From positions 1 to 62,705 of IMG/VR virus record IMGVR_UViG_3300044788_000047: DNA of 62,705 nucleotides. The stretch is one strand, 5' to 3'. The translations under genes were made by a program, and so were the position numbers. Source of the DNA: a virus (lineage: Duplodnaviria; Caudoviricetes). Below are positions 6,147 to 54,270 of the stretch, piece by piece. Within the stretch, counting starts at the first letter, position 1, and each line of letters opens with the position of its first letter. The notes below the pieces were generated by a model. It searched no databases. It saw only the letters and a list, made by a program, of their open reading frames with translations, and was not told where the DNA came from.

Positions 6147-7382
6147 CTAGTCCGGCCACTGAATATCCCACCCGCTCAGGGCCACCGCGTCGATCGAATA
6201 CGTCGGGGAGACGGCGTAGAAAATCGTGGACCGGGGATCTCCCCGCGTGGGCACCCGCATGGGCGCGCCGCTCTGGCCCGATTGTTCTTGATAGAACGCC
6301 GCGACCTTGGTCACCGTCGGCACGCCACTCCACGATTGCCAGTGAAATCCTGCCGTCGCGCCTCCCGCCACGAGGACGTTGATTTCCACGGCACTCACGG
6401 CGACCGTCGGCACATAGGCGCTCAAGTCGAGGGCCGTGGCGTTCGTCAGAACCGAGCTGGTGATGACCTGGGGCGGCGTGGCGAAACTAAATGAGCTATC
6501 AAACTGGACGCCCTTCAAAAAATGCGCGGTGGCATCCGTCCCGAAACCGCCCACGAGGCGCCGCTTCGTGTAGCCGATCGGCATCGTGGGGTTGGTCCCG
6601 GAGGTCGAGAGGAGACCCGAGAAGGTGTTGGAGGGCGGCCTGAGGATGACGTAGAGATAGTAAAACGTGTTGGCGGCCAGCGTCCCGCTGTCCAGCGCAT
6701 CGGCGCCGGTGGTCGTGGCGTCTACCGTCGTCGTGAAGGGCGACTTGATGAAGCCGGCCACGCTGATCCGATCGGCCGAGAGGTTGATTTTCGTGTTGGG
6801 CGTGCCGGGATTGTTGAGGGCGATGAACTTGATGGTCACGGCACTGCCGTAGGAACTCGACGGTCCCGTGAGCGTGTTGACGATCCCGGCATGGTCCCGG
6901 TACGCGAGCACGGTGTTACCGGCGCCATCGTCTTTCGCATAGAGCGATAGGGTATTGAGCGCCGGCGGCGGCGGCGGGTCGGCGATCTCGGTGTAACTCG
7001 TGTAGGTCGCTCCCCAGTGCTTCGAGACGTCGCGTGCCAGCGAGTTGTCGATCACTTCATACCAGTAGCTCTTTCCGACGATCGCCTTGAGTTGAAAGCG
7101 GAGCCGCTCAAGTTCTCCCTGCACCGTGCTCGCCTGGGAGGCCGAGGTGCCCGGAAACGGATCGACCGTCACCCGCATCTGGCTCACAGAGGAGGAATCC
7201 CCTGTGACACAGGAGGCGATGTTCGAGGTCACCGTCCGCGTGAAGGCGCTGTTGAGGTCCGTGGATGTCAGGATCTCGTTGAGGGCCCAGGTCTTGAAGA
7301 CGCCGCACTGCGCTGCGGCAGGAGCGGGCAGTCCCCACCAGAGCGCAAGCACGGACACTGCCACTAGCATTCGTAGGCTCAT
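6147..7382 (-). CDS. Tail fibre/spike-like protein with N-terminal signal peptide
   Basis: Start at 7382 (GAGGAG RBS). MSLRMLVAVSVLALWWGLPAPAAA|Q; anchor-like segment QM..TVDP...GELERLRF....IVGKSYWY; fibre-type DALDSGTLAANTFYYLYVI...PTMPIGYTKRRLVG. Confidence 0.7.
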   Translation of the reverse strand: MSLRMLVAVSVLALWWGLPAPAAAQCGVFKTWALNEILTSTDLNSAFTRTVTSNIASCVTGDSSSVSQMRVTVDPFPGTSASQASTVQGELERLRFQLKAIVGKSYWYEVIDNSLARDVSKHWGATYTSYTEIADPPPPPALNTLSLYAKDDGAGNTVLAYRDHAGIVNTLTGPSSSYGSAVTIKFIALNNPGTPNTKINLSADRISVAGFIKSPFTTTVDATTTGADALDSGTLAANTFYYLYVILRPPSNTFSGLLSTSGTNPTMPIGYTKRRLVGGFGTDATAHFLKGVQFDSSFSFATPPQVITSSVLTNATALDLSAYVPTVAVSAVEINVLVAGGATAGFHWQSWSGVPTVTKVAAFYQEQSGQSGAPMRVPTRGDPRSTIFYAVSPTYSIDAVALSGWDIQWPD

Positions 7383-7392
7383 GGGTCTCTCC

Positions 7393-7779
7393 TCATTTCT
7401 TGTTGCCAAAACTATACCCCCCGAGACTAAACGCCGTCTGTAATTGTGAAATCCGGAAGTATGGGAACGGAGTCTCGCCGAACGTTATCGGCTCACACGC
7501 GCTCTCCGCCGACGCGACGAGGTCGGGATCGCCGCTCGTGAAGATGGCCCGATAGGCTTTCGGGGCGACGTCGGTGATCAGGCGCTCGCTCGAGAGGACG
7601 ACCGCGCTGGTCCCGCCCGCTGGGACGGGCACGGTTTCCTCGGTGAAGTCACCGCTACAGTCGCCGGTCTCGTAGAACCGGAAGGTGATGGTACTTCCGT
7701 CCGGAATGACTCCACCAATGACGGCAACCACAGCCTGGTCGAGGATGACTACCGGGACGAAGACGAAGGGCGTCGTCAT
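7393..7779 (-). CDS. Ig-like (bacterial Big-type) virion accessory protein
   Basis: D.A.V...P.G.ITF.FY...C.G...Y.A.F..GD......S.CEP pattern with a Cys pair. Confidence 0.6.
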   Translation of the reverse strand: MTTPFVFVPVVILDQAVVAVIGGVIPDGSTITFRFYETGDCSGDFTEETVPVPAGGTSAVVLSSERLITDVAPKAYRAIFTSGDPDLVASAESACEPITFGETPFPYFRISQLQTAFSLGGYSFGNKK

Positions 7780-9365
7780 CAGACAACCGACCAGGTTCCC
7801 GCTAGCCAGACACTCGTCGAGAACGCAACGGTGACTGTGCCGGACGCGAATTTCCCTCCCTGATGGGGCCCCACCAGCACGTCCGTAATCACCATCACGC
7901 CGCCACCGGCATGGATTTCCCGGCCGATGTCTGTGGTGTCGAACGCCCCGACTAACACCTGAGTGCCTGGGACAGTGGTCTGCACGAACGCATCACCAGT
8001 CGAGACTGGGTGCGGGGCCCCGAAGTCAAAGTAGAGGTCGGCCAGCCGGAACTCCTCCGGCAGCGGGCCCGGTGGAGGCGGAGGCGGCGGGGGTGGCGGA
8101 GGCGGCGGGGGTGGCGGGGGCGGCGGGGGTGGCGGCGGAGGCGGCGGCGGTGGAGGTGGAGGCGGTGGAGGTGGAGGTGGAGGTGGAGGTGGAGGTGTAG
8201 GTGTAGTAGGAGGAGGCGGCGGCGGCGGAGGCTGTGGTGGCGCAGTCGGCGACGCCGACAGGAGGATCGTCGTCGTCACGCTGGCGACCCCTGCCGGCGG
8301 TGTGATCGCGGTTTCCTTGTTCAGGATGGGCGACGTCGGTGAGAGCGACGCGACGTCCTGGACGATGAGATTCGCAAAGACATGATAAGCAGGAAACTCG
8401 GCCCAACTCCCGCCCGACCGCTCGATATAGGCAAAGTTGTCCCCGCCATCGGCGCCAGCCAAGACCCCCGAAATGGTGCCATAGGCCCGAAGCGAGGTTC
8501 CGGCCCCACTCAGGCCGATGTAGTACGGTGTGCCATTGACAACTTCGAGGGGATCGAAGTAGACAGTCATCGGCGTGACGCCGCCCGACGAGCGCACAGC
8601 CGCCAAGAGCGTAGCCGATCGCAGGGCCACGCCGGCAGCGTTGTAGATCCCGATGACGGTATCTACGGTGACGTCGCAATCGAGGCGGACCCCGCTGATC
8701 TTCATGTCCCACGGCGGAATAAACTTGGCGCCGACCAAGTCCGCGCCACCCGACGGCAGGGAGATGATGGCGGAGCTCGACGCGAGACACCCCCAGGGCA
8801 CGAGCCATTCGTCGTCCTCAACATAATGCAGCGCCAGAAGCGGGACTGTTTCCCCTGTGCCCCCGGTCGAGTTCCAACCAAGCGCATCTGGATCAGTGAC
8901 GCTATAGGGAAACCCCCACGATCCCGCTGGTCCGAGAAAGTACCGCGATCCAGTACTCGGCGATCCCCCGCCAAGACTGGCGACGGTCACACAACACGCA
9001 AGCAACTGGCCGCGCGTCACGGCAAGGCCAGAGTTCATATTTGCTGCTATCCATCCATTTGTGGGTAGTGCTGAAGACGGAATAGGCGCCCCGTGGTCGC
9101 CAGTGCCAATCACACCGGAACCTGTCGGCAGTCCATCCGCGCCAACCGTTTCAAGGCTCCACGTCACACCGAACACGCCTTGGACGATGTACGACTGATA
9201 GGCGTAGGCGTTGATCGTGCCCGTCTTGGGTGCGGCGATGACATAGCCGAATCGGGTGCCGACCACGGAGGCACCATCTAGCCAGTGGTAGAAGTTCTCG
9301 ATGGCCGGGGTGATGGCAAACTTGAAGTTCCACGGCCACGGCCAGTAGGCGACGGGGAGGGACAT
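7779..9365 (-). CDS. Virion accessory/receptor-binding-like protein: tandem beta-sandwich domains, polyproline stalk, C-terminal beta domain
   Basis: 528 aa; N-terminal ~340 aa paralogous to 9366-10358; 42 consecutive Pro; C-terminal domain paralogous to 45589-46119. Confidence 0.65.
   Translation of the reverse strand: MSLPVAYWPWPWNFKFAITPAIENFYHWLDGASVVGTRFGYVIAAPKTGTINAYAYQSYIVQGVFGVTWSLETVGADGLPTGSGVIGTGDHGAPIPSSALPTNGWIAANMNSGLAVTRGQLLACCVTVASLGGGSPSTGSRYFLGPAGSWGFPYSVTDPDALGWNSTGGTGETVPLLALHYVEDDEWLVPWGCLASSSAIISLPSGGADLVGAKFIPPWDMKISGVRLDCDVTVDTVIGIYNAAGVALRSATLLAAVRSSGGVTPMTVYFDPLEVVNGTPYYIGLSGAGTSLRAYGTISGVLAGADGGDNFAYIERSGGSWAEFPAYHVFANLIVQDVASLSPTSPILNKETAITPPAGVASVTTTILLSASPTAPPQPPPPPPPPTTPTPPPPPPPPPPPPPPPPPPPPPPPPPPPPPPPPPPPPPPPPPPGPLPEEFRLADLYFDFGAPHPVSTGDAFVQTTVPGTQVLVGAFDTTDIGREIHAGGGVMVITDVLVGPHQGGKFASGTVTVAFSTSVWLAGTWSVV
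8070..8195 (-). repeat. (CCN)42 polyproline tract
   Basis: 126 nt of mixed CCG/CCA/CCT/CCC codons, preceded by PPQPPPPPPPPTTPT. Confidence 0.95.
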
Positions 9366-10358
9366 TTAGCTTATCCCAGGGAGCGAGAGCGCGAGATGTG
9401 GGAAGCGGGTGGCGTCATCCGTCCACGCCCCGCCTGCTCGCGACGTGGCGATAGCGGCCACCCCGGCGGCTTGGATCGCCGCCGACATGGTCGTGCAGAA
9501 CAGTTTGAGACTCCCTGTCGTCGTCTGATACGCTGTGAGCCGGTAAGCGTCACCTTTCACGAGCGGGACATCGGTGGGCCACGCAACATAAGGATGGAAG
9601 GTGCCCGACTCCGAGTGTTGCTGGTCCGTCAACGCCTTCGAGGCGAGTAACGACCCGGCATCAGTATAGAGACGGATCTCGTAGTCGGCGTTTGTCAACA
9701 GCGCCATCACGGCACCGGCACACATCGCGTTGAACGGCATCACCAATCGACCCCCGACCTCGGACCCGATGGCCGACGCCGTGAGGGGCGCGTACATGCT
9801 CGTGGTGCCATCGCCGAACCACGTCGCCGCCGGGTACACGTAGTCCCCGTCGAGCGCCAGCGCCACCATGGGCTTATTGGTTGTCTTGCCCCACGCCGGC
9901 TCTGGAGACGCACCGAGGGTATAGGATTCTCCATCTCCTAGCACACCAGCGTTGTTGAGGTTCACGAAACCGCCGCCGAGCGTATTGAGACGTCGCACCA
10001 TGAGCGCGATCGGCTCGCCGACGGCGACTGTCCGTGTGCCTCCCCCATCGGCCCCGGTGTCTGTCGGCGACAGATCCATCCAGGTCGGACTCGCCGAGGG
10101 TACAACGAAATCACGATAGTAGGTTTCGGCGGCGACAGGGAATCCGGTTGTGAGATCCACGAGCCGCACAGACACGCGCACGGTATCGGCAGGCCCGCTT
10201 AGTTGCAAACCGATCTTTGTAATGTCGCCGGAGAAGGGAGCTCGGAACACAAAACCGCTTGTACCACTCGAGGCAATCGCCTTCGACGCCTGCGACGCGA
10301 GAATAAAGTTCTGCGGGCCAGTGGGCCACCACACGCCGCCGCCGACGGCCAGCGCCAT
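9366..10358 (-). CDS. Virion accessory beta-sandwich protein, paralogue of the N-terminus of 7779-9365
   Basis: Shared pattern WP..P.NF...G.V..AP..G.I...G.P...VG.....P......G......D..I..Y..AG..L.S..L...GG.W. Confidence 0.6.
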   Translation of the reverse strand: MALAVGGGVWWPTGPQNFILASQASKAIASSGTSGFVFRAPFSGDITKIGLQLSGPADTVRVSVRLVDLTTGFPVAAETYYRDFVVPSASPTWMDLSPTDTGADGGGTRTVAVGEPIALMVRRLNTLGGGFVNLNNAGVLGDGESYTLGASPEPAWGKTTNKPMVALALDGDYVYPAATWFGDGTTSMYAPLTASAIGSEVGGRLVMPFNAMCAGAVMALLTNADYEIRLYTDAGSLLASKALTDQQHSESGTFHPYVAWPTDVPLVKGDAYRLTAYQTTTGSLKLFCTTMSAAIQAAGVAAIATSRAGGAWTDDATRFPHLALSLPGIS

Positions 10359-10811: not shown

Positions 10812-12779
10812 TCACGGATTCGTCCCGATGTACCCGTGATAGCGGATCCGATGCCCGCGCCCGCGCAGGCGCCGCGCGCAGAAGAGCGGCGTCAGCCACC
10901 CGAGCGTCTGCTGATCCAGGTACGACTGATCCAGGATGAAGCTCGAACTTTTCCCCTGGAGGGGAATCTTCAACTGCGTCGGCTGGAGGACCCCGTCGAT
11001 GTAGACGTCGATCGTCAGAAACCAGGCGCCGACGGGTAGCCCTTCGACGATCAAGAAATGGTAGTTCTTCTGCGAGACTTTGTATTGGTCGCCGAGGTGC
11101 TGGAAGTTGTCGTCCCAGGTCTCCCACTCACTCCGGTAGGGGACATTCACGTCAGCGTAAATCGCCTGGTAGCAGAGTTTGATGATGCCGCCCGACCCGC
11201 TCGCGATGGGCGTGCGGCTCCCGTCGATGTTGATATGCAGACACAGTCCCTCGCATTCAGGAAAGGTCGAGTGGTGGAAGCGAATGCCGAAGTCGGGCAG
11301 CCGCTTGATGTTCATTTTGAGACGCAGGTTGTTGACGAGGGAGCCCTTCTTGCTGAAGCCGCCCCACAACTCCTCGATCTGGTCGAAATAGATCAACTGA
11401 CAAAACGGCAGTCGCCCCTTGTCTACGTTATCTTCGAGAAATTGAGCATAGGTCTCTTGCGAAATCGAGGAGGCGTTGACGTCGCCGAGCTGATAGGCCG
11501 CGGTCTTCGACATCCGATGCCACGAGCCGTCCGGCGCGATAAAGATCACGTCGTCATAGAACTGGCTCTGGTCCGACCCCTGAATGACGGTGATCGCCAA
11601 GGGCCCCACGCACCCGACCGCGTTCGTGTGTTCATTCACCGTCCACTGGGTCACATCGAGGCTGCTCGTGTCGATCCGGTAGATACCCCGGGGCTTCTTG
11701 TAGATCCACCCCTGGCCACGCCAAGACACGCCCGCCGTGATGCCATCCCCCTTGCCGGTGAAGATCGGGATCGTGATGGGATTCGAGAGAAAGTCCTCGT
11801 GGTCGGTCCTCGAGGAGACGTACAAGACATGGACGTTGTTCGTGTTCCCAAAGCACGCAAGGCGACCTTCCATGAGGAACCCGGCCGTCGGCTGGTTGTC
11901 GAGGCTCCAGTCGAGCGGCGGGCGGCTGATCCGATGCACGGAGCGCGTCGAGTTGTAGACCGGCGCGACGCGATGCGTCTCGGTGCCATCGTTGCCGGTT
12001 TGGCCATCTGAGAAATTGTCCGTATAGTCGGTGGTCCCGTTGTCATCGAGTGTGTGGAGAAAGATCGGCGGTGGCGTGATGAGCGCCGTCCCGGGATCGT
12101 AGGCGATGCTCCGGAAGATCCGGCGAAACGTCGTTCCATCGGGCCCGGTCGGCACGAACAGTTGCACCCGCGCGCGATTGCCGTTGGCAATGACCACACT
12201 GGTCACCGGCCCGGCCGCGGTCTCGCCGCGCGCATTGCCGAAGACATAGGTGTAGTCGTGCTGGCCGAGGTTGATCGCGCCCTCAGTCTCTAGCACGGTC
12301 GCGCCCAGGGGCACGGTCGGGTCCGCGAGCCCCGTATCGGTCGTGGCATCCCCGCTGAGCACTTGCGGCGGACCCCCACCGAAGAGGATGAGCTTCGGGG
12401 GATAGCCCGCGATCTCGGAGCCGCATTCGACAGGGACCATGAGCCGATCCGGCTTGAGTCCGGCGACGAGGCGCATGTAGGTACGCCCGTCGTCCTGACT
12501 GATGTGGATGGTGCCATCGCGACCGCAGGCGACCATCCGGGACGTATCGGGATACGGGAAATACTGGTGGATCGTGCCGACAACCGGGCTGTCTTGCAAC
12601 GGAAACTCGACCATCATCCGAGTCCCCGGCTCCGTCTCCCACAGGTCGTTTTCGAGCGTGCAGTTGATGAGGGCCTTGAGAAACTTTGGGCCGGCCACGT
12701 TGACCGCGTTCGGGTTCATCGTGGCGTACTCGGCCCCTTGGCCGGCGCGCTGCGGGAGGAGGAGCTCCCTGTACCCCAT
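10812..12779 (-). CDS. Tail tubular protein B / P22 gp10-like nozzle (stabilisation) protein
   Basis: 655 aa, beta-rich; F.MEGRL, LYVS, GDGITAG, VGCVGP..I, DVIFIAPDG, SI; follows the adaptor gene. Confidence 0.75.
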   Translation of the reverse strand: MGYRELLLPQRAGQGAEYATMNPNAVNVAGPKFLKALINCTLENDLWETEPGTRMMVEFPLQDSPVVGTIHQYFPYPDTSRMVACGRDGTIHISQDDGRTYMRLVAGLKPDRLMVPVECGSEIAGYPPKLILFGGGPPQVLSGDATTDTGLADPTVPLGATVLETEGAINLGQHDYTYVFGNARGETAAGPVTSVVIANGNRARVQLFVPTGPDGTTFRRIFRSIAYDPGTALITPPPIFLHTLDDNGTTDYTDNFSDGQTGNDGTETHRVAPVYNSTRSVHRISRPPLDWSLDNQPTAGFLMEGRLACFGNTNNVHVLYVSSRTDHEDFLSNPITIPIFTGKGDGITAGVSWRGQGWIYKKPRGIYRIDTSSLDVTQWTVNEHTNAVGCVGPLAITVIQGSDQSQFYDDVIFIAPDGSWHRMSKTAAYQLGDVNASSISQETYAQFLEDNVDKGRLPFCQLIYFDQIEELWGGFSKKGSLVNNLRLKMNIKRLPDFGIRFHHSTFPECEGLCLHINIDGSRTPIASGSGGIIKLCYQAIYADVNVPYRSEWETWDDNFQHLGDQYKVSQKNYHFLIVEGLPVGAWFLTIDVYIDGVLQPTQLKIPLQGKSSSFILDQSYLDQQTLGWLTPLFCARRLRGRGHRIRYHGYIGTNP

Positions 12780-14577: not shown

Positions 14578-15072
14578 TTATGCGGGGATGTCGATCGCCC
14601 GGAGGTCCGGGTCCCCGTCGATGTAGGTGACGTTGGTGACGTCGAGAGCCGTCGTGCCTGGAACGAAGGACGGCGGCAGGATGATGGAGCAGATCGTCGC
14701 CGTCGCCACCGAGCGCGTCGGCGGATTCTCTTTCGCCTCCGCGAGGGTAGCAAACGGACCGCTGAAGAGAATGCTGACCGTACCGTCCTTGTCGAGTTGC
14801 ACGCGAAGGTGGAGCCACTGGCCGGCCGCGGTGGTCGGAATGTTGAACCCCGTGATGACCTGCGCGGAGAGGTCCGCCTTGAGGTAGCGCACGCCGTTGA
14901 TCTCGAAGACGATCCCGCCCGAGGGCACGACGGTCGTCTTGAAGGTCGCCGCGCTGCCGCTGTTGACCGCCGGCACGCACTGGGAATGCACCCGGTTGAC
15001 GAGGGCGACCAGCACGGCCGCGAGCGCCCCCTGGTTGACGCCCCGACCCGTCAGTACCGCCTGTCTGCCCAT
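14578..15072 (-). CDS. Putative head decoration protein
   Basis: 164 aa beta-rich, AAGGAG RBS, near the MCP; ends FVPGTTALD. Confidence 0.5.
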   Translation of the reverse strand: MGRQAVLTGRGVNQGALAAVLVALVNRVHSQCVPAVNSGSAATFKTTVVPSGGIVFEINGVRYLKADLSAQVITGFNIPTTAAGQWLHLRVQLDKDGTVSILFSGPFATLAEAKENPPTRSVATATICSIILPPSFVPGTTALDVTNVTYIDGDPDLRAIDIPA

Positions 15073-18919: not shown

Positions 18920-18944
18920 GGCTCGGCTCCTTCTGCCTGTCCGC

Positions 18945-19880: not shown

Positions 19881-19968
19881 GGTCTCCGTCTCCTTACCCG
19901 TTCACGGCGGGTCGCCGATGCGCCTTGATGACGGGGTGGCGCCCCCGATAGTCCCCGCACGGGGACCT

Positions 19969-19991: not shown

Positions 19992-19999
19992 AGCTCACG

Positions 20000-22602: not shown

Positions 22603-22605
22603 CGG

Positions 22606-23061: not shown

Positions 23062-23069
23062 CGTCTCCT

Positions 23070-46941: not shown

Positions 46942-47235
46942 TTACTTCCCGAGCGTTGGCGCCCCGATGGACACCTGGGGCACGACCGTTATCGGCACCT
47001 TCACCTTGTCGGCCGTATCCGTCACGGACAGGCCTTCCTGCGTGCACGTCATCGCCCCGCCCTGGACGCCCGTGCCGCCCATGCGGACGACGCCATAGAC
47101 CGAGGACACGGAGACGCACCAGGACCGTTCGCTCTTGCCGAGTTGTTTCAGGACGTCATCCGACGGCGCCAGCGAACAGCCACCGAGCAGGACCACGAAT
47201 AGCCCCACGACACCCCATCGCCACAGTCCAGTCAT
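46942..47235 (-). CDS. Lipoprotein (possible o-spanin)
   Basis: MTGLWRWGVVGLFVVLLGG|C lipobox; two further Cys; lysis-like neighbourhood. Confidence 0.55.
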   Translation of the reverse strand: MTGLWRWGVVGLFVVLLGGCSLAPSDDVLKQLGKSERSWCVSVSSVYGVVRMGGTGVQGGAMTCTQEGLSVTDTADKVKVPITVVPQVSIGAPTLGK

Positions 47236-47640
47236 CGTGACGCCTCCCGCATCTGTGCGGAGAGCAGTCGGAGGGCCACCGTCGCCCCCCCGACGCACCC
47301 GCCATGCAATTCTTCAAGCGCCCGCTGCACCTCCCGCTGCCAGTCATCGAGGGTCTGCGTCGCAATCGGTTTGATCTGGAGGGGGCTCACGATTTCACCT
47401 CACATCGAAGACACACATAGGTCGTCTGGCCGCCATCTGTACGCGTCCAAAACGGCACGTCAAGAAACCAATCGTGTTGCCCAATCCAGCATGCGAATCT
47501 CCCCAATCGACCCCGCCACCCACGCGGACGTTTGTAGAGACCGATGTCGCACCACTCGCCAAGTTCCAGGCGCACCCAATCCGTTGTCAATTCCACATAG
47601 ACATGAACCGGAGGCTTGTCCATCACACTCATGCGCGTAC

Positions 47641-47889
47641 TCACGGCCTCGCCTCCTTAGCGACGGTATCGGCCGTCTTCTGGGCCTGGGCCGGCGTGAT
47701 CCACGGGGCTGGCGTCGAATCCGCGACGCCACCCCAATAGGCGCTGACGGCGAGGATACCCGGCCAGAGCACCGCAATCCAGTCAATCAGGCTGATCTGG
47801 CCGGCAGCTTTGAGGGCACCCCAGTTGACGGCCAGGGCGCCGATGAAGATGCCGACCGACTTGAGCGAGAGCTTGACGTAGGGGTTCAT
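47641..47889 (-). CDS. Putative holin
   Basis: 82 aa, two hydrophobic segments, charged C-terminus. Confidence 0.5.
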   Translation of the reverse strand: MNPYVKLSLKSVGIFIGALAVNWGALKAAGQISLIDWIAVLWPGILAVSAYWGGVADSTPAPWITPAQAQKTADTVAKEARP

Positions 47890-48248
47890 TACTCCTCCAT
47901 CCAGGCGCACATCTGCTTGAACGCCCCCGGGATGTACCGCTGGCGGAACTGCGCCCGGTCCTCAATGCTCATCGTCAGGATACACGCGCTCCGATCCGAG
48001 GCCGTCCGCAAGATTCGATGCTCCTTCGTCGCGTCGTCCCGAAGTCCGCTGATGGCCTGCTGGGTTTGCCACCCAGAGAAGAATATCGAGGCCATAATCG
48101 CCAGGACGCCCAACGCCAGAAAGACGCCAACCCCGCGCACCGAAAGACTGGCTTCCTTGTAGCCGATCCGCAGGGTCGAGTCGCCCGCTCGGAATGGCGT
48201 CGGGTCAAAGTGTTCCGGGTCATCCACCCGCTTGGCCTCACTTCCCAT
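47889..48248 (-). CDS. Single-pass membrane protein (lysis module, possibly i-spanin or antiholin)
   Basis: One TM segment followed by a helical domain with two Cys. Confidence 0.4.
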   Translation of the reverse strand: MGSEAKRVDDPEHFDPTPFRAGDSTLRIGYKEASLSVRGVGVFLALGVLAIMASIFFSGWQTQQAISGLRDDATKEHRILRTASDRSACILTMSIEDRAQFRQRYIPGAFKQMCAWMEE

Positions 48249-48362: not shown

Positions 48363-48788
48363 TCATTGTACCCTATAGTAGGTGACATTCACGACAGCCG
48401 AGATGGCGTTGGACCCGGCCGGTAGGATCGAGGAGAATCTGGCGATGTTGCTGGCGCCGCAGACGGAGATCGGCGTGAGCACGGCGGCCGTGTGGTGTCC
48501 GATTGTCGCTGTGGGCGCGGTGCCGTCCACCCGATACCGGATCGAGCTCGGCGCCTCGACGGAGAAGACCGCGATGTCGGCCGCTCGCGCTTTGGTCGGC
48601 GCATAGGTGCCAGCAGTGAAGGCCACAGCCGGCGTATAGGTCACGGTCAACGTCTCGAAGGCGAACGCGGCCTTCTGGACTGGCGGAAGGCTGCAATCTC
48701 CCACGACGACCTGACTGGGCGCCGGCACTGTCAGCGCGAGGACCAAGGCTAGGACGAACCCAATCAACACGAGCCGTCGCATAGGCAC
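48363..48788 (-). CDS. Small beta-sandwich (spike-base-like) protein, paralogue 2, with signal peptide
   Basis: MRRLVLIGFVLALVLALTVPAPS|Q; FETLTV...IRYRVDGTAPT...G...VNVTYY; two Cys. Confidence 0.65.
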   Translation of the reverse strand: MPMRRLVLIGFVLALVLALTVPAPSQVVVGDCSLPPVQKAAFAFETLTVTYTPAVAFTAGTYAPTKARAADIAVFSVEAPSSIRYRVDGTAPTATIGHHTAAVLTPISVCGASNIARFSSILPAGSNAISAVVNVTYYRVQ

Positions 48789-49015: not shown

Positions 49016-49993
49016 TCACTGCGCCCGCCGCCGCTGGAACATCCCCGACGCAGGCGCCGCGGGCGTGTAGGTGATGATGATGACGCCGTTCCGTCCAGCC
49101 GCTCCCGTGCCGCCCGCCGAGGTGCCCGATCCTCCCCCACCGCCCGCCGAGCCCCCCGCACCCCACTTGCCGCCCGGTCCCGCGTTCGTCCCGGGTGCGG
49201 CGTTGCCGCCCGTGCCGCCTCCACCCGCGCCTCCTGCGCCGCCGACTTCAGCCGAGACGGTATCGGTCTTGTAGGTCGTGTTGCCGCCCGTGCCGCCATC
49301 GGATGTTGAGCCGGTGCCGCCGCCGACCGTCCCGCCGTCGCCGCCGTCGCCCCCTGTGGCTCCTGAGCCCGCCGTGCCCGCCGTCCCGCTGCTCGTAGAT
49401 CCAGCCGCCCCGCCTCCGCCGCCGCCGCCACCGCCGATGCCAACCGAGCGGGCGCCACCCCCAGCCCCGTTCGATCCGTCGCGGGTTGTCGTGCCGGCCG
49501 GAGTGCAGGTCGTTGTCGTGGACCCCGCGCCGGGGTTGCCCGCGCCGCCGCCGACTCCACTAGAGGCTTGGAGTGTGCCCGCCGCCGAGAAGAAGGTACA
49601 CGTCCCGTTGCTGCCGCCTGCACCTGCACCGCCGAGCGCGCCACCCTGGCCGATCTGATACGTCACCGGCCCGGCGCCGGGGTTGTGGTTCGTGATGGTC
49701 GCATAGCCGCCGCCCTTGCCACCCCCACCGCCACCACGCCCCTGCGTGGAGGTGCCGGTCGTGCCGCCCGCGCCGCCACCGCCCGCGCCAATCACCTCGA
49801 TGGTGTTGTGCGCCGGGTCGAAGTCGGCGGGCACGGTCCAGCTCGTCCCGGTCGTCAGCACGACGATCGTGTCCACGGCGCTGGCCGTCCCCACCCAGAC
49901 GAGCATGAGAACGGCCAGCGTCAGATAGGTAGCCAGGGAAGAATACCGAAACCCGGGTCGATAATGGTAACCACCCCCCCGTTGAGTCATCAC
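49016..49993 (-). CDS. Glycine-rich fibre-tip-like protein with signal peptide
   Basis: TSWTVP...IEVIGAGGGG...GGGGGG..Y...G..GVIIITY glycine-rich domain; leader ending GTASA. Confidence 0.75.
   Translation of the reverse strand: MMTQRGGGYHYRPGFRYSSLATYLTLAVLMLVWVGTASAVDTIVVLTTGTSWTVPADFDPAHNTIEVIGAGGGGAGGTTGTSTQGRGGGGGGKGGGYATITNHNPGAGPVTYQIGQGGALGGAGAGGSNGTCTFFSAAGTLQASSGVGGGAGNPGAGSTTTTCTPAGTTTRDGSNGAGGGARSVGIGGGGGGGGGAAGSTSSGTAGTAGSGATGGDGGDGGTVGGGTGSTSDGGTGGNTTYKTDTVSAEVGGAGGAGGGGTGGNAAPGTNAGPGGKWGAGGSAGGGGGSGTSAGGTGAAGRNGVIIITYTPAAPASGMFQRRRAQ
49876..49940. repeat. 65-bp direct repeat encoding a signal peptide, copy B
   Basis: 64/65 identical to 28486-28550. Confidence 0.95.
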
Positions 49994-52900
49994 TACATCG
50001 CCCGCCGATACGTGATCGTTGCCCCGATCAGGTTGGTGCTACAGGTGCAGGTATCCGCGCCGTCGTTGCCATCTCGGAACACCCGGATGTGAAGCAACTC
50101 GGAGGTCGCCGTGGTACACGTCCCCGTACCCGTCGTCGGCAAGGTCGCACCCGTGATGATGCTCGACTGGACCCGGTTGGCCGTGCCCGCGACGGCTGTC
50201 GTGACCGTGTTGAAGCCATCGCCCGTCGTTGGGAAGGCCGTGTCATCGGTCTCCGTCGCGCCTGTCGCCGTGCAAATGAATTGCACTGTCCACTTCGCGT
50301 TGCCGCTCGTCGCTGAGGTTGTCCACAAAAGTTGTACATCCACGCCACCTAGGGTCGTCCAATCGGCCGGCAGATGTTCCGTGATCTGCGCGGAGAATCC
50401 CCCCGACGTGTCGGCGTACTGGAGCACGCCCTTCTGGGTGTTGGTGCCAGTCACACACGCAGCGACGGCCGGGGTCGCAGTCGGCAGGTCCCAGATCGTC
50501 CCCGCCGTCGCGTTGTTACACCCTGCGGCGGGGAGCCACTTCTTGAAGGGCAGCGTCACGACGTTGCCGGTCGAATCGGCGTTCAGCGTCTTGTTGGTGA
50601 AGACCAGGGTGCTGGCCGCCGAGTCCTGATACGTCGAGGCGACGCCCGCACCGTTGGCCGTGAGGACCAGGCCGGACGTCGTGGCGGCAATCACGCCGAT
50701 GGCATTCGTACCTGTTGCGGCGAGGATGTCACCCGTCGTGGCCGCGTTCGGCAACGTCAAGGTGGACCAGAGTGGCGCCGCCCCGACCCCACCGGCTCGC
50801 AGATACGGGCCCACCGCCACGTCCGCCAGTCGCGTAAAGGTTGTCGTCCCATCCGCGTAGAGGAGATCCCCGACCGCCTGCGAAGCAATGGCGAGGTGCG
50901 CGGCGTTGAGCTTGCCTGCCACGTTGCCGATGACGGTGTTGCCGCCGACGAGCACGCTGGTGCCGAAATACCCGGTTCGGGCGGTTGCACTGCTGGAACC
51001 GAGATCATACGTGTTAGTCGTGCCAGGCGTGAGATGTCCAACGGCAGCATTCCCGTCGAAGAACCACCACGTCGTCGTGAGAGCCAAATCACCCCCACCA
51101 AGACCGAACTTGATGGACGAGTTCTTGGTACTGGCATTTTGATTCAGACCAATATGCACGCTTCCGTCTGTGCCACTTGCGGCGCCTTTCTCGCCATAGA
51201 TAAAGGCGGAACCGCCGTTGAAGGCTCCCGTCCCACTTTGGCCACCACCGATACCGCCCCGAAGGGTCGCATTGCCGCCGTGGGCATTCTGGAGGGCGTC
51301 CCAACTCTGTCCAAATCCTCCATTGAGCGAGACGTTCCCTGCCGTCGCACTGCCCGACTCGCCGGGATCGCCACCAGTGACGGCAACACTGCCCCCGGTG
51401 CCCGTACCACGACCGGCGGAACCAGCCATAAAGAGACCGCCGCCTGCCGCGTTCACACCATCCTTCGGTGAAGATCCACGTATGGTAAAACTGTTTCCGG
51501 CGCCGGTCGTCGTCTTCTGGAGCATCGCCAGCTCTTGCGCTGAGTCCCCACTCAGATAGATACGGCCGAGATCAGTGATCTGGACTACGGTGCCCGCTGC
51601 GGAACTAAAGGCCACAAGCGGCCCTGAACCGACCGCGCTACTAAATATCAACGGCGTCCCATTCCCCGTGCCAAACGGCACAGTGATCGCCTTGACCGAG
51701 ACGTTATCAATATGTCCGTCGAACGTGGACACGAGGGGCGTCAGCAATAAGTTCCCTGTGGTCACGGCAATGACATAATCGGTAAACGTCCCGTTCGCCG
51801 CGTGAAACGCTCCACTCGCGCCGCCGAGCGTCGGCCGAAGGCTCCCCGCCGTGCGGCTGGTGATGGTATAGACCAGCTTGTACACTGTGCCGACCGTGAT
51901 TGACAGGGGTGTGCTCGGAAACAACGCGGTCGTATTGCCTGTGTTGTGCTGGACATCGGTGCCGGCGTTGCAGGTCCAGTCGGTCGTCGTCCAGTCGTCG
52001 CAGGTGCCCGTCGAGAAGTCTCCAGCCGTCACCAATTCCGTGCCGAGTTCCTCGTTCTGGGAAAATCCGTGTGCCCCGACAGTCCCAGCCGCCGTCATCA
52101 CGGCGCCACTCTCAGAGACGATCGAATCTGCGAGCACGCCCCCAGCACCATCCGACCATTTCGTCAAGACGCCCGTCGTGCCAGAGCCGGTGACGGTGCC
52201 CGACCCGCTGGGTGTCGCCCAGGTGTTATCTCCACGCAGGAAGGTGGTGCCGCTTGGTGTGCCCGTGGCGGTCAGGTCGGCAATGGCGACGCCGCTAAAG
52301 GTGGGATTGCCTGCCGCATTCCCGTGGAGGAGTGTCGTGGTCGTGCCTTGATTCGCAAACTGGGCCGACGCCAGGGTGGCCGTGGTACAGGTGCCGACCG
52401 CGCCCGCGGAGAGAGCCGTCACGAACTGGTTCGTGCAGGTCGAGGTCGTGATGTTCAGGTCGGCACTCACGACCGCTCCGAAGCTCGGCGCGCCGGCTGC
52501 ATTGCCGTGGAGCACAGTGGTCGTCGTCCCGAGCGAACCCAAGGCCGTGACCACGGTCGTCCCGGCCCCGAGGATGAGGGCATCGGTCGTCAGCGTGCCG
52601 GAATTCGTGACCGTGCCGCTGCCGGCGGGGGTGGCACACGTCACCGCGCCCGCATCCGAGATCGCGTTGACGAAATCGCTGCCGGTGCAGGTGAGCGTCT
52701 GGACCCCGTGCTTGACCACGCCGGCATCGTCCTTCACGGCGAGGTTCTTCGAGGTCGAATCGACGTAGATCGAGCCCTTGCCGGCCGCAGGCGTCCCAGG
52801 GGCCGCGATGGCGGTCGCCAGGAGACTCCCGGCCATCGTGGTCCCTGTCGGGATGTTGACCAGCGTGGTCGCCAGGGTATTCGTGGTGGTCACATCCCCG

Positions 52901-54270
52901 GTCAGATTGCCGTTCGTGATGGACGTGGCCCCGCTGAATTGGGTCAGATTGCCACTAGCAGGCGAGCCGGTAGTGGTCACGGTCCCGCTACCCGCAGGCG
53001 TCGCACAGGTGAGCACTCCGGTTGCCGCGACCGCACTCACGAAATCGCCCGCTGTGCACGTGGCGGGTTGGACGGGATTGCTGTCCGCGTTCGGCAACGT
53101 AAAGATGCGAGAGCCCGTCAAGGTCGCCATCGTGACCGTGGTCGTGTTCGTCGTTCCGAGCACGAGCTGGTTCGTCGCCGCAGGCAGCGCGAGTGCGGCT
53201 TCGATAGACACCAGACCATTCGTGATGGTCAGTTCCGGCGTCACACTGACACCCAGGCGGAGGGTATCCAGATCCGAATTGCCGTAAATGCTCAGAAGAT
53301 ACGCGGGCGAGGCAACATCGCTGTCCGTCAACGTAAAGCCCGTGATCGTGGGACCATTGACGACAGCAGAGCCAGACCAGCCCGCCATCGTCAACTCAAA
53401 GATGGCGTTGTTGGCCAGTGATTTCGTCGGCGTCCCGTAACTACCATTGAACCTGAGAGTCTTGATGAGCGGCGCGAACTTACCCGTGATATAGAGCGAT
53501 TGGTCAACCGTAAAAGCTTTGCTATCTACGCTATGGAGGAACGTCGCCATGTCGGCTGCGACCGTCCCGGACCCTTGGACAGTCATGACATTGAACCAGG
53601 GCGACGAAGGGTCTTCGTAGAGGAGGCTGTCCCCGAGCGCCGTTGTTCCGGTCCACAGGGGGACGAAGTTCGCGGTGCCCGAGCCGGTGACGCTTCCCGC
53701 CGGGGTGGCACACCCCAGCACCCCGGCCGCGCTGATCGAGTTGACGAAGTTACTCCCACTACACGTCGCCGGTTGGATGGGATTGGAATCCGCGTTCGGC
53801 AGGGTGAATACCCGACTTCCCGTGAGCGTGGCCATGGTGACCGTCGTGGTATTCGTGGTGCCGAGGGTGAGTTGATTGGTGTTGGCACTCAAGGTCAAGG
53901 AGGTCGCGAGGGGGGTTGCGGTAAACGCGGGGTTCGCGCCGGTAGCTCCCTGGAGAAGAGTCCCCGTGGCCCCTACAGGGATGCCGGTGATGTCCGTCGC
54001 TGTGGTAAAGACCGAGAGCTGATGGATGAGCGGCGAGCCGCTAGAGGTCACGGTCCCGCTGCCGCCTCCACTCGTGATGGTACACGTCCCCAACCCGCCC
54101 CCCTGTGCACACGTCACGCCCGCACCGACGAAGTTGAGAATGCTGATGCGCCCGAGCGGAGTGCCTTCGTCGCGCAACTGTATCCCACCGCCGGGAGTGA
54201 TCTGCGCCTCCGCGCGGACCAGGAACGTCGCGAGCAGCAGCACAAGAACGAGTGGGAAGGCGCGTCTCAT
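49993..54270 (-). CDS. Long fibre-like protein (1425 aa) with signal peptide and 18 paired Cys
   Basis: MRRAFPLVLVLLLATFLVRAEA|Q; repeated TC....FV..I...G...C motifs; TFLRGD.TW; a carbohydrate-binding-like module; Gly-rich beta repeats. Confidence 0.8.
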   Translation of the reverse strand: MRRAFPLVLVLLLATFLVRAEAQITPGGGIQLRDEGTPLGRISILNFVGAGVTCAQGGGLGTCTITSGGGSGTVTSSGSPLIHQLSVFTTATDITGIPVGATGTLLQGATGANPAFTATPLATSLTLSANTNQLTLGTTNTTTVTMATLTGSRVFTLPNADSNPIQPATCSGSNFVNSISAAGVLGCATPAGSVTGSGTANFVPLWTGTTALGDSLLYEDPSSPWFNVMTVQGSGTVAADMATFLHSVDSKAFTVDQSLYITGKFAPLIKTLRFNGSYGTPTKSLANNAIFELTMAGWSGSAVVNGPTITGFTLTDSDVASPAYLLSIYGNSDLDTLRLGVSVTPELTITNGLVSIEAALALPAATNQLVLGTTNTTTVTMATLTGSRIFTLPNADSNPVQPATCTAGDFVSAVAATGVLTCATPAGSGTVTTTGSPASGNLTQFSGATSITNGNLTGDVTTTNTLATTLVNIPTGTTMAGSLLATAIAAPGTPAAGKGSIYVDSTSKNLAVKDDAGVVKHGVQTLTCTGSDFVNAISDAGAVTCATPAGSGTVTNSGTLTTDALILGAGTTVVTALGSLGTTTTVLHGNAAGAPSFGAVVSADLNITTSTCTNQFVTALSAGAVGTCTTATLASAQFANQGTTTTLLHGNAAGNPTFSGVAIADLTATGTPSGTTFLRGDNTWATPSGSGTVTGSGTTGVLTKWSDGAGGVLADSIVSESGAVMTAAGTVGAHGFSQNEELGTELVTAGDFSTGTCDDWTTTDWTCNAGTDVQHNTGNTTALFPSTPLSITVGTVYKLVYTITSRTAGSLRPTLGGASGAFHAANGTFTDYVIAVTTGNLLLTPLVSTFDGHIDNVSVKAITVPFGTGNGTPLIFSSAVGSGPLVAFSSAAGTVVQITDLGRIYLSGDSAQELAMLQKTTTGAGNSFTIRGSSPKDGVNAAGGGLFMAGSAGRGTGTGGSVAVTGGDPGESGSATAGNVSLNGGFGQSWDALQNAHGGNATLRGGIGGGQSGTGAFNGGSAFIYGEKGAASGTDGSVHIGLNQNASTKNSSIKFGLGGGDLALTTTWWFFDGNAAVGHLTPGTTNTYDLGSSSATARTGYFGTSVLVGGNTVIGNVAGKLNAAHLAIASQAVGDLLYADGTTTFTRLADVAVGPYLRAGGVGAAPLWSTLTLPNAATTGDILAATGTNAIGVIAATTSGLVLTANGAGVASTYQDSAASTLVFTNKTLNADSTGNVVTLPFKKWLPAAGCNNATAGTIWDLPTATPAVAACVTGTNTQKGVLQYADTSGGFSAQITEHLPADWTTLGGVDVQLLWTTSATSGNAKWTVQFICTATGATETDDTAFPTTGDGFNTVTTAVAGTANRVQSSIITGATLPTTGTGTCTTATSELLHIRVFRDGNDGADTCTCSTNLIGATITYRRAM

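Follow-up and report, generated by a model that had tools for sequence, protein, structure and literature searches.

The question raised by this 62.5-kb tailed-phage genome is why its fibre-like appendage proteins should carry bacterial export signals and paired cysteines. In the window, which is the whole stretch of 62,705 nucleotides that was analysed, the initial annotation had pointed to eight late-strand proteins with hydrophobic leaders, and all eight ORFs were indeed present, all on the minus strand and each with a Sec-type leader. Exported tailed-phage fibre proteins of this kind were not found reported in our literature searches. The eight are listed below, a slash marking the cleavage-type site.

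6147-7382, minus strand: leader-bearing fibre protein of the tail module, 411 aa, with Cys26 and Cys58 (leader and N-domain homology)
16836-17798, minus strand: leader-bearing protein directly behind the MCP, 320 aa, 6 Cys, 'A1 family' (homologues)
24875-25132, minus strand: small leader- or anchor-bearing protein, 85 aa, 1 Cys, Lys/Ala/Glu-rich tail (hydrophobic N-terminus)
25206-28259, minus strand: giant fibre-like protein, 1017 aa, 12 Cys as six local pairs (leader, repeats)
28256-28594, minus strand: small leader-bearing protein just upstream of the 1017-aa gene, 112 aa, 1 Cys (leader)
48363-48788, minus strand: small leader-bearing protein, 141 aa, 2 Cys (leader MRRLVLIGFVLALVLALTVPAPS/Q, SD AGGAG)
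49016-49993, minus strand: glycine-rich (33% Gly) leader-bearing protein, 325 aa, 2 Cys (leader)
49993-54270, minus strand: giant fibre-like protein, 1425 aa, 18 Cys (leader MRRAFPLVLVLLLATFLVRAEA/Q, homologues)

Each of the eight leaders has a basic n-region, a hydrophobic core and a small-residue site, the sites being, in coordinate order, AAA/Q, APA/I or VSA/Q, AFA/Q, APA/Q, ASA/E, APS/Q, ASA/V, and AEA/Q. The initial annotation is corrected for 25206-28259, where two hydrophobic segments precede APA/Q. The leader of 6147-7382 is MSLRMLVAVSVLALWWGLPAPAAA/QC with the Shine-Dalgarno (SD) motif AGGAG 6 nt upstream of the start, that of 24875-25132 is MKLIPLVVALGIWLSFFAFAFA/QSPTPTPS with SD GGAG, and that of 28256-28594 ends in SLATYLTLAVLMLVWVGTASA/E with SD AAGG. 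The leaders are not bypassed: no comparable internal start follows any of them, and SD sites favour the leader-including starts. Nine leader-including starts were examined, of which 6 have an SD motif in front and 3 directly adjoin an upstream stop; among the eight candidates these numbers are 5 and 3, and the start of 25206-28259 overlaps the upstream stop. A putative ninth leader, in 14578-15072, was dropped as it is not conserved.

Leaders were scored by our own Kyte-Doolittle hydropathy heuristic, in which the best 10-residue window, starting within residues 1-40, must reach at least 2.2. By this rule 18 of 72 predicted proteins pass in this genome, compared to 8 of 70 in the first 50 kb of Bcep22, and among the large proteins (at least 250 aa here) 7 of 21 pass compared to 2 of 22 (Fisher p 0.069). 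That the leaders are beyond chance is argued much more strongly by their being kept in homologues, and they look like genuine, conserved Sec/signal peptidase I (SPase-I) signals. The head module is given here for comparison.

17828-19192, minus strand: MCP, no leader
18945-19880, minus strand: scaffold-like protein, no leader
20404-22602, minus strand: portal, no leader
23070-24527, minus strand: large terminase, no leader

Profile matches in this module (17828-24527) were to phrog_334 (2.7e-68), phrog_156 (5.4e-102) and phrog_2 (8.8e-15). Portal and scaffold lack a leader by hydropathy, as had been claimed; for the tail tubes, BLAST to Bcep22 identified no genes, as MCP and portal were the sole proteins with a match there.

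What kind of proteins are exported can be judged best from 6147-7382, which is composed of a conserved N-terminal fibre domain and a region like the second domain of Mtd. The fibre-family matches of the genome's own proteins are all sub-threshold; 6147-7382 gave 22.9 bits against PF21916, under the Pfam cutoff of 24.6, so that its likeness to BPP-1 Mtd is weak, and an E of 0.0034 against phrog_19294 tail fibre. Mtd is not known to have a leader. The family of 6147-7382 has 7473 representatives, and its Atlas neighbours include Mtd-domain clusters. Leaderless homologues start with 'MGATFSRVKTW..LTA.DLNAEF' exactly at the start of the mature chain, and in some N-domain homologues a leader is fused directly onto that leaderless fibre start. 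A related phage (L013/G004) encodes a protein in which a leader and the same N-domain are combined with matches to Collar (72.8 bits) and to Gp10_C (29 bits). Its gene immediately follows the homologue of 10812-12779 in the tail module, which is the same position as that of 6147-7382.

The 1425-aa giant has 192 homologues at E <=1e-3, and a leader was found in 88 of 119 among the matches listed; these share kinship and the counts are therefore not of independent events. A net-positive n-region and a -3/-1 site are found in every one of the 88, the median leader is 20.5 residues long, and the +1 residue is Gln in 37 of 88 (enrichment p 2e-28). In one of the homologues (P0008) the leader takes up residues 1-20, and the chain behind it matches phrog_1640 'tail protein' starting at profile position 2. 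The other giant, 25206-28259, has repeat modules in common with 49993-54270 and weak matches to annotated tail-fibre genes in 3 phage records, and the Atlas clusters nearest to the fibre proteins are mostly virus-dominated. Since the mature chains have the same N-termini as leaderless phage fibres, homology and synteny support a fibre type for at least 6147-7382 and the two giants. The overall reading given earlier is partly supported: the export signals look genuine, the fibre type is backed by homology and synteny, and 24875-25132 is possibly not an appendage.

The cysteine counts given earlier were right (2, 6, 1, 12, 1, 2, 2, and 18 in coordinate order, six of them even), and the local pairs of the two giants fall within repeat units, the two cysteines being 16-17 and 12-16 residues apart. 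The expectation that signal-bearing homologues gain Cys pairs compared to signal-less ones was borne out in two families. In the first, 20 of 25 N-domain homologues of 6147-7382 with a leader have the Cys26/Cys58 pair, against 1 of 18 without one (Fisher p 1.1e-6, the fragment P0144 left out); in the second, that of the post-MCP protein, close homologues have both the leader and the conserved Cys columns and 3 distant homologues lack both. For the 1425-aa protein, 74 of 88 leader-bearing homologues have an even Cys count (binomial p 5e-11 among related sequences), but so do 15 of 18 leaderless fibre homologues, and the difference in Cys density between the two groups is weak (p 0.04). The commonest Cys gaps in the fibre homologues are 16 (108/1114) and 17 (73/1114), and within this genome the leader set shows no more than a modest excess in Cys density (1.25 vs 0.8 per 100 residues). 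Cys pairs alone are not proof of periplasmic folding, because a leaderless fibre of 903 aa and 2 Cys (L113) carries the region of residues 456-549 of the 1425-aa protein, which holds one of its Cys pairs, at 73-75% identity, and because virion disulfides form without export, as described for siphovirus tail-tube rings, the Q-beta capsid and phage Milano (PMC13576161). In the cases that this source describes, Cys pairs likewise stabilise extracellular virion parts, but the proteins have no signal peptide and are oxidised after assembly or release, whereas here the pairs co-vary with the leader (PMC13576161).

Downstream of the MCP gene the post-MCP protein has a partner.

15640-16833, minus strand: polytopic Wzy_C-family membrane protein, 397 aa, partner of 16836-17798 (PF04932, 47.4 bits, cutoff 31.7)

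The leader of 16836-17798 is kept in 10 close homologues that were aligned and, by the Kyte-Doolittle rule, in 12 of 12 post-MCP homologues (P0122-P0133). Its AF2 model (pLDDT 68) has a helix at 4-17, a low-confidence linker at 19-35 and an all-beta body, and its nearest Atlas clusters are 85-93% viral. The Wzy_C protein, with at least 6 hydrophobic segments, has 16 homologues, all on contigs <=60.6 kb, and its clade is found only on phage-sized contigs; H167, N169, R264, GxGxG 282-286, H314, E316, H375 and P377 are invariant. Where the post-MCP protein has a leader, the Wzy_C protein adjoins it in 7 of 8 lineages, against 0 of 3 where it has none (p 0.024); L025/L026 is the counter-example, and significance is lost in a strict tally (5/8 vs 0/3, p 0.18). 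A leader-bearing or polytopic ORF is downstream of the MCP in only 11 of 66 MCP-related loci. The initial annotation did not mention this enzyme; a phage-borne Wzy_C membrane enzyme linked to an exported post-capsid protein is new here.

These observations lead to the question of where such fibres would mature, and they suggest that, in this and in many uncultured phages, some of the virion is completed beyond the cytoplasm. The explanation that we favour, with a probability of about one half, is that fibre-type appendages are exported as Sec preproteins, folded in the periplasm and joined to particles late, with Wzy_C travelling alongside. Proteins 6147-7382, 25206-28259 and 49993-54270, and probably also 16836-17798 and 49016-49993, would be made as Sec/SPase-I preproteins and would enter the periplasm of a diderm host, where removal of the leader would often expose Gln and the mature chains would fold with local disulfide pairs. 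Heads and core tails would undergo the usual cytoplasmic assembly, and the exported fibres, whose place in the virion is suggested by homology and synteny, would come into contact with them either at the inner membrane or not before holin-dependent lysis has joined the two compartments. The Wzy_C enzyme may transfer glycan in the periplasm, moving undecaprenyl-linked glycan onto the post-MCP protein, or may act with that protein on envelope glycan.

A rather unlikely explanation is that export is real but that the proteins do not belong to the virion, being receptor-binding-protein paralogues that work in the infected cell's envelope, or on it, by masking or destroying the receptor, blocking superinfection, keeping progeny off debris or decorating the cell surface, the Wzy_C pair remodelling envelope glycan as in seroconversion. 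Such functions are known from T5 Llp, which masks the receptor, and from the seroconversion O-antigen polymerases of phages D3 (wzy-beta) and epsilon15, which are likewise phage-encoded polytopic enzymes of O-antigen metabolism. It would agree with such a role that both giants are encoded away from the tail module, one before the terminase gene and the other behind the giant DarB-like gene, that Wzy_C is an envelope-glycan enzyme family, that the genome also has small lipobox proteins, and that the close relative L005 lacks the block 6147-10358 and, in place of 24875-25132, encodes an esterase-like protein that is exported (373 aa, 12 Cys). However, the mature N-terminus is the N-domain of leaderless fibres, P0008 even matching the tail-protein profile from position 2, for which a decoy would have no use; between the core tail gene and the giant gene of G004, the leader-bearing fibre is the only ORF that maps to a fibre family; and none of the eight proteins showed an outer-membrane anchor or a secretion domain. 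Moreover, leaderless post-MCP homologues occupy the same head-module slot without the enzyme, which is hard to fit to an ancestral envelope role. The present case differs from the seroconversion polymerases in this respect and in that Wzy_C is locked to an exported protein; no integrase was found among the ORFs scanned.

It is improbable that the hydrophobic N-termini are uncleaved signal-anchors or inner-membrane tethers, or segments used later in infection, with assembly cytoplasmic or membrane-proximal. The two hydrophobic segments of 25206-28259, the long gap from the core to VSA/Q in 16836-17798, the resemblance of 24875-25132 to a membrane-anchored coiled-coil protein, and the N-terminal TM-like segments of 5249-6136 and Bcep22 gp70, whose cleavage sites are unclear, would be compatible with anchoring, but the small-residue -3/-1 site in 88 of 88 leader-bearing fibre homologues, the length of about 20 and the Gln-enriched +1 position are features of cleaved SPase-I signals and not of anchors, and Cys pairs that co-vary with the leader fit a lumenal or periplasmic fold. 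That wrong starts or frames yield chance hydrophobic N-termini is very improbable and already largely refuted, for although the GC is about 64%, spurious ORFs are numerous, MCP ORFs overlapping the scaffold gene have hydrophobic N-terminal extensions (the one case seen) and the ninth leader failed, SD sites precede the leader-including starts and leader character is kept across homologues at 40-80% identity on many contigs and in GC-poor relatives such as L085.

Periplasmic maturation of fibres can be compared to known systems. Filamentous-phage pVIII and pIII and the membrane-containing PRD1 have virion proteins with signal sequences or membrane insertion, maturation on the periplasmic side and joining at the membrane, but in those phages the particle is extruded or forms around a membrane, while this is a tailed phage with terminase, portal and HK97-type capsid and cytoplasmic assembly. 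Bcep22-like podoviruses (Lessievirus) resemble it in genome size (~62 kb), MCP (~35% identical), portal (~26%) and a giant DarB-like polyvalent protein, and differ in that nothing else maps by BLAST, and in that Bcep22 has fewer large proteins passing the leader rule and no annotated Wzy_C in its head module. A precedent is gp70 of Bcep22, whose annotation reads 'virion structural protein, contains potential signal peptide'. PF04932 is described as covering WaaL ligases and PglL, and 21 of 31 predicted pglL genes as adjoining an exported target gene, often co-oriented and outside LPS loci (PMC3643930); PglL/PilO-type O-oligosaccharyltransferases are described as acting on Ser/Thr in the periplasm (PMC6901666). 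The Wzy_C gene here is similarly adjacent to and co-oriented with an exported-protein gene in the 7 of 8 lineages, but PF15864 PglL_A was absent even at E 10, the target is not a pilin, and the gene is phage-borne with putative activity; PilO is also described as lacking PglL motifs (PMC3643930). Phage lysis proteins such as signal-peptide/SAR endolysins and spanins also use host Sec and N-terminal hydrophobic signals, JC1 Rz1 being described with a Sec/SPII signal (PMC9144972), and this genome too has a lipobox protein and small TM proteins. Lysis proteins are small factors, whereas the leaders here are on fibre-type proteins of 320 to 1425 aa with mature ends matching virion-fibre N-termini. 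The lysis genes are as follows.

20000-20404, minus strand: phage lysozyme, leaderless (PF00959, 52.6 bits)
46942-48248, minus strand: putative lysis cassette of a lipobox protein (VLLGGC/S) and two small TM proteins (anatomy only)

As the lysozyme has no hydrophobic N-terminus, any lysis role would need a holin. The cassette and the glycine-rich 49016-49993 gave no family matches in profile searches. Protein 24875-25132, a weak match to phrog_4297 (Rz-like spanin, E 0.0049), could have a role in lysis or be a membrane protein rather than an appendage. Protein 48363-48788 gave 17.1 bits against CHB_HEX_C_1, under the cutoff, and has weak similarity to the leaderless 54271-54591 (E 0.013). Finally, 28256-28594 and 49016-49993 have in common a 65-nt leader repeat (28486-28550 and 49876-49940) that is 98.5% identical.

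Eight proteins encoded on the minus strand of the window start with a leader of the Sec/SPase I type, in which a basic n-region is followed by a hydrophobic stretch of about 7-15 uncharged residues and by small residues at -3/-1. The initial annotation had described a hydrophobic leader in each of these ORFs, usually with a basic n-region and an AxA-type end, and a basic n-region, a hydrophobic core and a small-residue site were confirmed for all eight; leader calls throughout were made with our own hydropathy heuristic, which stands in for SignalP. The cysteine counts, 2, 6, 1, 12, 1, 2, 2 and 18 in the order listed here, agree with the even numbers reported earlier for six of the proteins, and the cysteines of the two giants are local pairs, as had been proposed, set regularly within repeat units. 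The eight proteins and the landmark genes are as follows.

6147-7382, minus strand: leader-bearing tail-module protein
16836-17798, minus strand: leader-bearing protein of 320 aa behind the major capsid protein (post-MCP protein)
24875-25132, minus strand: leader-bearing protein
25206-28259, minus strand: leader-bearing giant, 1017 aa
28256-28594, minus strand: leader-bearing protein
48363-48788, minus strand: leader-bearing protein
49016-49993, minus strand: leader-bearing protein
49993-54270, minus strand: leader-bearing giant, 1425 aa
15640-16833, minus strand, downstream of 16836-17798: Wzy_C-family polytopic protein (PF04932, 47.4 bits; cutoff 31.7)
17828-19192, minus strand: major capsid protein, MCP (PHROGs)
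20404-22602, minus strand: portal (PHROGs)
23070-24527, minus strand: large terminase (PHROGs)
3902 to 1, then 62561 to 57281, minus strand: 3,060-aa ORF across the junction, with ddrB-ParB, Sno-type helicase and LPD38 domains

The Sec/SPase I features were found in 8/8 window proteins and in 88/88, 12/12 and 25/25 leader-bearing homologues in three families, and the n-region was net-positive in 24 of the 25 from the 6147-7382 family. By a crude rule (best 10-residue Kyte-Doolittle window of at least 2.2, beginning within the first 40 residues) 18 of the 72 predicted window proteins passed, and 7 of the 21 that are at least 250 aa long, compared to 8 of 70 proteins and 2 of 22 large ones in the first 50 kb of Bcep22 (p 0.069 for the large proteins). 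Ser/Thr/Ala/Gly make up a median of 44% of the mature chains of the eight and 33% of 25 other late proteins, and charged residues 11% compared to 23%. Of the 9 genes examined, 6 have a Shine-Dalgarno motif ahead of the start that includes the leader, and in the remaining 3 this start abuts the upstream stop codon; the possibility raised earlier that downstream starts bypass the leaders was looked for, and no start just after any leader is similarly supported. A lipobox (L-[AS]-[GA]-C with Cys at +1, the SPase II type) was found in none of the eight leader proteins; it is present in 39608-39778 (LFAGC) and 46942-47298 (LLGGC). Tat signals have a conserved twin-arginine motif, S/T-R-R-x-F-L-K, and a weakly hydrophobic core. 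Two window leaders contain RR, but Tat export was rejected because the homologues mostly have KK, RK or KR and the cores are strongly hydrophobic. Two further candidates were also rejected, 14578-15072, which in its orthologue in the close relative L005 has an Asp inside the hydrophobic stretch and lacks the Cys, so that the leader is not conserved, and 7393-7779, which has a hydrophobic N-terminus but with an Asp inside it and no basic n-region. Apparent leaders on the MCP ORFs of two related loci, L011 and G004, are artefacts of upstream ORF extension. A 65-nt repeat (28486-28550 and 49876-49940, 98.5% identical) codes for the same leader on two different proteins, which points to a leader cassette copied recently by duplication or gene conversion.

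At an E-value of 1e-3 or better, 192 homologues of the 1425-aa protein were found. Of the 119 matches listed in addition to the query, 88 carry a leader and 18 start at Met without one; the other 13 are ambiguous or begin at a codon other than Met, and some of the "leaderless" ones resemble truncated leaders. In all 88 leader-bearing homologues among the matches listed the n-region is net-positive and a -3/-1 site is present; their median leader length is 20.5, and Gln stands at +1 in 37 of the 88 (p 2e-28 against 4%), an enrichment that is real because the site rule ignores +1. The mature chain has an even number of cysteines in 74 of these 88 (p 5e-11) and also in 15 of the 18 leaderless homologues listed, and the most frequent Cys-Cys gaps in the listed homologues are 16 and 17. 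Among the matches listed, leader-bearing homologues have a median of 1.24 cysteines per 100 residues and leaderless ones 0.56, a weak difference (p 0.04). Leaderless fibres in the related loci L112 and L113/L116 share residues 448-549 of the 1425-aa protein at about 70-75% identity, and this segment holds one of its Cys pairs. In another viral contig (L117, 5420-11391) two consecutive leader-bearing giants of 1,168 aa (18 Cys) and 834 aa (14 Cys) lie directly behind a 229-aa leaderless ORF.

The association of leader and cysteines is sharper in the family of 6147-7382, which comprises 7,473 representatives. Its N-terminal domain is common to 44 of the best 150 of these 7,473, and after one fragment was dropped there remained 25 leader-bearing and 18 leaderless proteins, of which 20/25 and 1/18, respectively, carry the Cys26/Cys58 pair (p 1.1e-6). 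The leaderless homologues start with "MGATFSRVKTW..LTA.DLNAEF", exactly at the beginning of mature 6147-7382, and in five leader-bearing homologues among the same best 150 of 7,473 the leader is joined straight to that start and the cysteines are missing. The post-MCP protein 16836-17798 has 15 homologues. A leader is present in all 10 close ones aligned (43-68% identity), the Kyte-Doolittle rule is passed by 12/12 of homologues P0122-P0133, and in three distant homologues (about 27%) the leader and the conserved Cys columns are both missing. The expectation set out in the initial annotation, that signal-bearing homologues gain Cys pairs, was therefore borne out in these two families. In all three families the homologues counted are related to one another, and the counts are not those of independent events. 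The AF2 model of 16836-17798 (pLDDT 68) consists of a helix at the N-terminus, a linker of low confidence and a body that is all beta; a Foldseek search with it gave no clear match (TM about 0.2), and several BFVD matches, to large phage proteins, aligned only 80-100 columns at 2.4-3.2 A rmsd.

Whether the leader proteins are virion appendages was judged from domains and gene order. The leaders are directly followed by domains found at the very N-terminus of leaderless phage fibres. In P0008, a homologue of the 1425-aa protein, residues 21-131 match PHROG 1640 "tail protein" from profile position 2, behind the leader, and the Pfam accession precomputed on P0008, PF03906, is what we take to be the T7 tail-fibre N-terminal domain; the accessions on other 1425-aa homologues are presumably Peptidase_S74, Collar, pectate lyase 3 and collagen. 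The PHROG tail-fibre match of 6147-7382 (E 0.0034), the sole one among the eight, is sub-threshold; its Mtd second domain scores 22.9 bits against a cutoff of 24.6, and its structural neighbours in the Atlas (TM 0.56/0.81) are unnamed viral clusters, some with mtd_2nd. The closest Atlas clusters of 16836-17798 and 6147-7382 are mostly virus-dominated. The Pfam cutoff was passed by 0/8 of the window leader proteins; PHROGs, Pfam and NCBIfam scans gave no match for most tail-module proteins, and sequence searches against solved structures gave nothing informative. A search of cultured phages gave no homologue of the 1425-aa protein or of the leaderless post-MCP protein, and for the others the matches were short.

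Tail fibres usually evolve by keeping a conserved N-domain and swapping the C-terminal domain at a fixed position in the tail module. In the related 52.8-kb genome G004, a replicate with an MCP 54-55% identical to that of the window, the portal, scaffold and MCP are followed by homologues of 15100-15636, 14578-15072, 12779-14026 and 10812-12779, and directly behind the last of these lies a 407-aa leader-bearing protein, then three ORFs and a giant ORF. This 407-aa protein shares 50% identity, over its residues 12-115, with residues 5-109 of 6147-7382, a stretch that includes the leader; Collar and Gp10_C make up its C-terminus. This locus is the best evidence, of an indirect kind, that leader proteins may be virion appendages. 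L005 lacks the whole 6147-10358 block (four genes of 330, 528, 128 and 411 aa) and has about 1.2 kb there instead, so that the block behaves as a swappable cassette. A position in the tail module, as is expected of fibre genes, is found for 6147-7382 and its G004 counterpart; both giants are placed at other points of the late strand. Of the eight, at least 24875-25132 may instead act in lysis or at the membrane.

The window, 62,705 b long, is an IMG/VR virus record in full. Its first and last 144 b (1-144 and 62562-62705) repeat each other with one mismatch, at position 18, which indicates that the genome is circular or terminally redundant and about 62,561 bp long, though the record is classed as "linear". 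Its GC content is about 64%, early genes are on the plus strand at about 33.7-45.6 kb and late genes on the minus strand. The MCP is 30-35% identical to capsids of Bcep22-like, Ralstonia and Klebsiella podoviruses (about 62 kb), BLAST mapped only the MCP and portal onto Bcep22, and the 3,060-aa ORF resembles the DarB-like "large polyvalent protein" annotated as Bcep22 gp75. The longest MCP ORF overlaps a scaffold-like gene (18945-19880) by about 250 nt, and since its PHROG match begins at residue 138 the MCP probably starts further downstream. No integrase turned up among the ORFs scanned in the window and no tRNA was found in it, and a scan of it for promoters and terminators gave chance-level results only. 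Prophage-like MCP relatives are spread over MAGs of many phyla, so no host is called from them; the lipobox proteins, the Wzy_C family and the style of the leaders suggest a diderm host.

Tailed-phage particles assemble in the cytoplasm, and in the textbook view entirely so. A far-reaching reading, with a probability of a little under one in five, is that this lineage uses two compartments: heads and tails would assemble in the cytoplasm, and the fibres and the capsid-proximal protein would be exported by Sec, disulfide-bonded, O-glycosylated by Wzy_C from host lipid-linked glycans and added at lysis. In the mechanism that seems most likely, the fibre-type proteins would be exported by Sec, for which the comparative evidence is strong; the leader would be cut at an A-x-A-type site, often exposing Gln, local disulfides would be made in the periplasm, as the Cys parity and the co-variation of Cys with leader suggest, and when the compartments merge at lysis the fibres may dock via their conserved N-domains. 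A serious alternative for the giants and the small proteins is that they are exported envelope effectors outside the virion, which mask or destroy receptors, act in exclusion or are displayed on the surface; the location of both giants outside the tail module favours it, and the fibre-type N-domain of P0008 points the other way. That the leaders are uncleaved anchors is a further rival, to be weighed against the -3/-1 sites and the +1 Gln enrichment. That they are an artefact is the weakest. The co-occurrence of leader and Cys favours true export to a compartment that is oxidising. According to the accessible text of PMC13576161, disulfides can form in virions without export, and in that of PMC13412088 the DsbA hits of a Klebsiella screen are ascribed to host receptors. 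No report of Sec-signal-bearing tail fibres was found in the open-access articles searched; the GenBank note on Bcep22 gp70 ([quoted passage not shown]) is the nearest precedent found.

The glycosylation part of the two-compartment reading comes from 15640-16833, which has at least 6 hydrophobic segments; its family, PF04932, takes in WaaL ligases, some Wzy proteins and PglL OTases. In a survey of about 100 MCP-anchored related loci, scored by HMM, a Wzy_C or polytopic ORF lies directly after a leader-bearing protein of the post-MCP family in the window and L010 (the record of L002 and L005), in L003 (a partial ORF), in L011/L012 (54.2 bits) and in L085 (47 bits); the neighbour in L020 has 7 TM segments and a weak score of 17.3 bits, and that in G004/L118 scores 23.2 bits, is 28% identical to 15640-16833 over 399 aa (E 4e-27) and forms with its partner a pair far from the MCP. 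The counter-example is L025/L026, where the leader-bearing protein has no Wzy_C behind it and the records are 28-36% complete. In L006, L007 and L008/L009 the slot of the leader-bearing protein is taken by a leaderless homologue with no Wzy_C or polytopic neighbour. The tally is 7/8 leader-bearing vs 0/3 leaderless lineages (p 0.024), and with the five strongest cases only it is 5/8 vs 0/3 (p 0.18). The clade of 15640-16833 has 16 homologues, all with PF04932 and all on contigs of at most 60.6 kb, and five of these contigs coincide in length with contigs of post-MCP-protein homologues. A comparable pair in L086, a 128-aa leader protein and a 7-TM protein (14.5 bits), shows no detectable homology of the small protein.

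Residues H167, N169, R264, G282/G284/G286, H314, E316, H375 and P377 are invariant in the Wzy_C clade, and R264 and H314 are so in 19 sequences; conserved Arg and His of the periplasmic loop are described for E. coli WaaL (R215, R288, H338) in the accessible text of PMC3643930. R264-G282-H314 is like R298-G316-H349 of PglL by spacing only. The PglL_A motif, PF15864, gave no Pfam match at E <=0.05 and none in a six-frame search at E <=10; the accessible text of PMC3643930 describes PilO as likewise without PglL motifs. According to the same text, 21 of 31 predicted pglL genes adjoin an exported pilin target, away from LPS loci, and 15640-16833 shares this trait, being adjacent to and co-oriented with an exported-protein gene outside LPS loci. 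O-OTases modify Ser/Thr of proteins in the periplasm from undecaprenyl-linked glycans (PMC6901666, accessible text). If the two were enzyme and substrate, it would be understandable that a head-module protein became exported exactly where the Wzy_C enzyme is present. That 15640-16833 glycosylates 16836-17798 is possible though rather doubtful, and glycosylation across the whole set of exported proteins is less likely than that; remodelling of envelope glycans is the main alternative for the pair. No report of a phage-borne protein O-OTase was found in the same open-access articles.

If the two-compartment reading is true, the phage would wear host-type glycan and oxidised fibres. Routine export and oxidation of fibres, or even their glycosylation, ahead of their joining the particle would, if true, mean that for host-range work the receptor-binding proteins of uncultured phages should be made periplasmically, in DsbA-competent hosts; the timing of lysis relative to particle completion would have to be rethought, and annotation pipelines would have to handle signal-peptide-bearing "hypothetical" giants in viromes differently. 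A phage Wzy_C locked to an exported protein would be a new class of phage-encoded glycan transferase, and would offer, together with the post-MCP protein, an enzyme-substrate pair open to direct test. The comparative data hold natural experiments, as the same domain occurs both with a leader and without one, and likewise for the Cys pairs.

The lysozyme (20000-20404) has no leader, so that any lysis role would need a holin; its gene lies between the portal and scaffold genes, far from a putative holin/lipoprotein cluster (46942-48248) whose small TM proteins and lipobox protein look, by anatomy only, like the rest of a lysis cassette. An Rz-like spanin has an N-terminal TM segment, a periplasmic coiled coil and a partner lipoprotein; 24875-25132 weakly matches the Rz-like phrog_4297 (E 0.0049), has a cleavable-looking AFA/Q site and lies about 22 kb from the lipobox gene. 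In the place of 24875-25132, between a fibre gene and terminase-side genes, L005 has an exported esterase-like protein (610-1731, 373 aa, 12 Cys, "LHGGE") with no Pfam match. A similar terminal "IR[YF]...YY" pattern is shared by leader-bearing 48363-48788 and by leaderless 28596-28937 and 54271-54591, each of which precedes a fibre cassette; the similarity is too weak (E 0.005 to 0.6) for the three to be called paralogues. Downstream of the giant 3,060-aa ORF, 55546-57123 encodes a 525-aa protein whose match to ATP-grasp (purD-like) is weak (E 3.6e-4) and lies well under the cutoff. In the related locus L048 a gene of the GDP-mannose 4,6-dehydratase/epimerase type (8716-9699) lies about 1.7 kb downstream of the MCP, which places sugar-nucleotide metabolism inside the structural module. 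On the plus strand, 39608-39778 and 38665-38922 are small early proteins with export signals, one with the LFAGC lipobox, and are candidates for envelope proteins of the superinfection-exclusion type.
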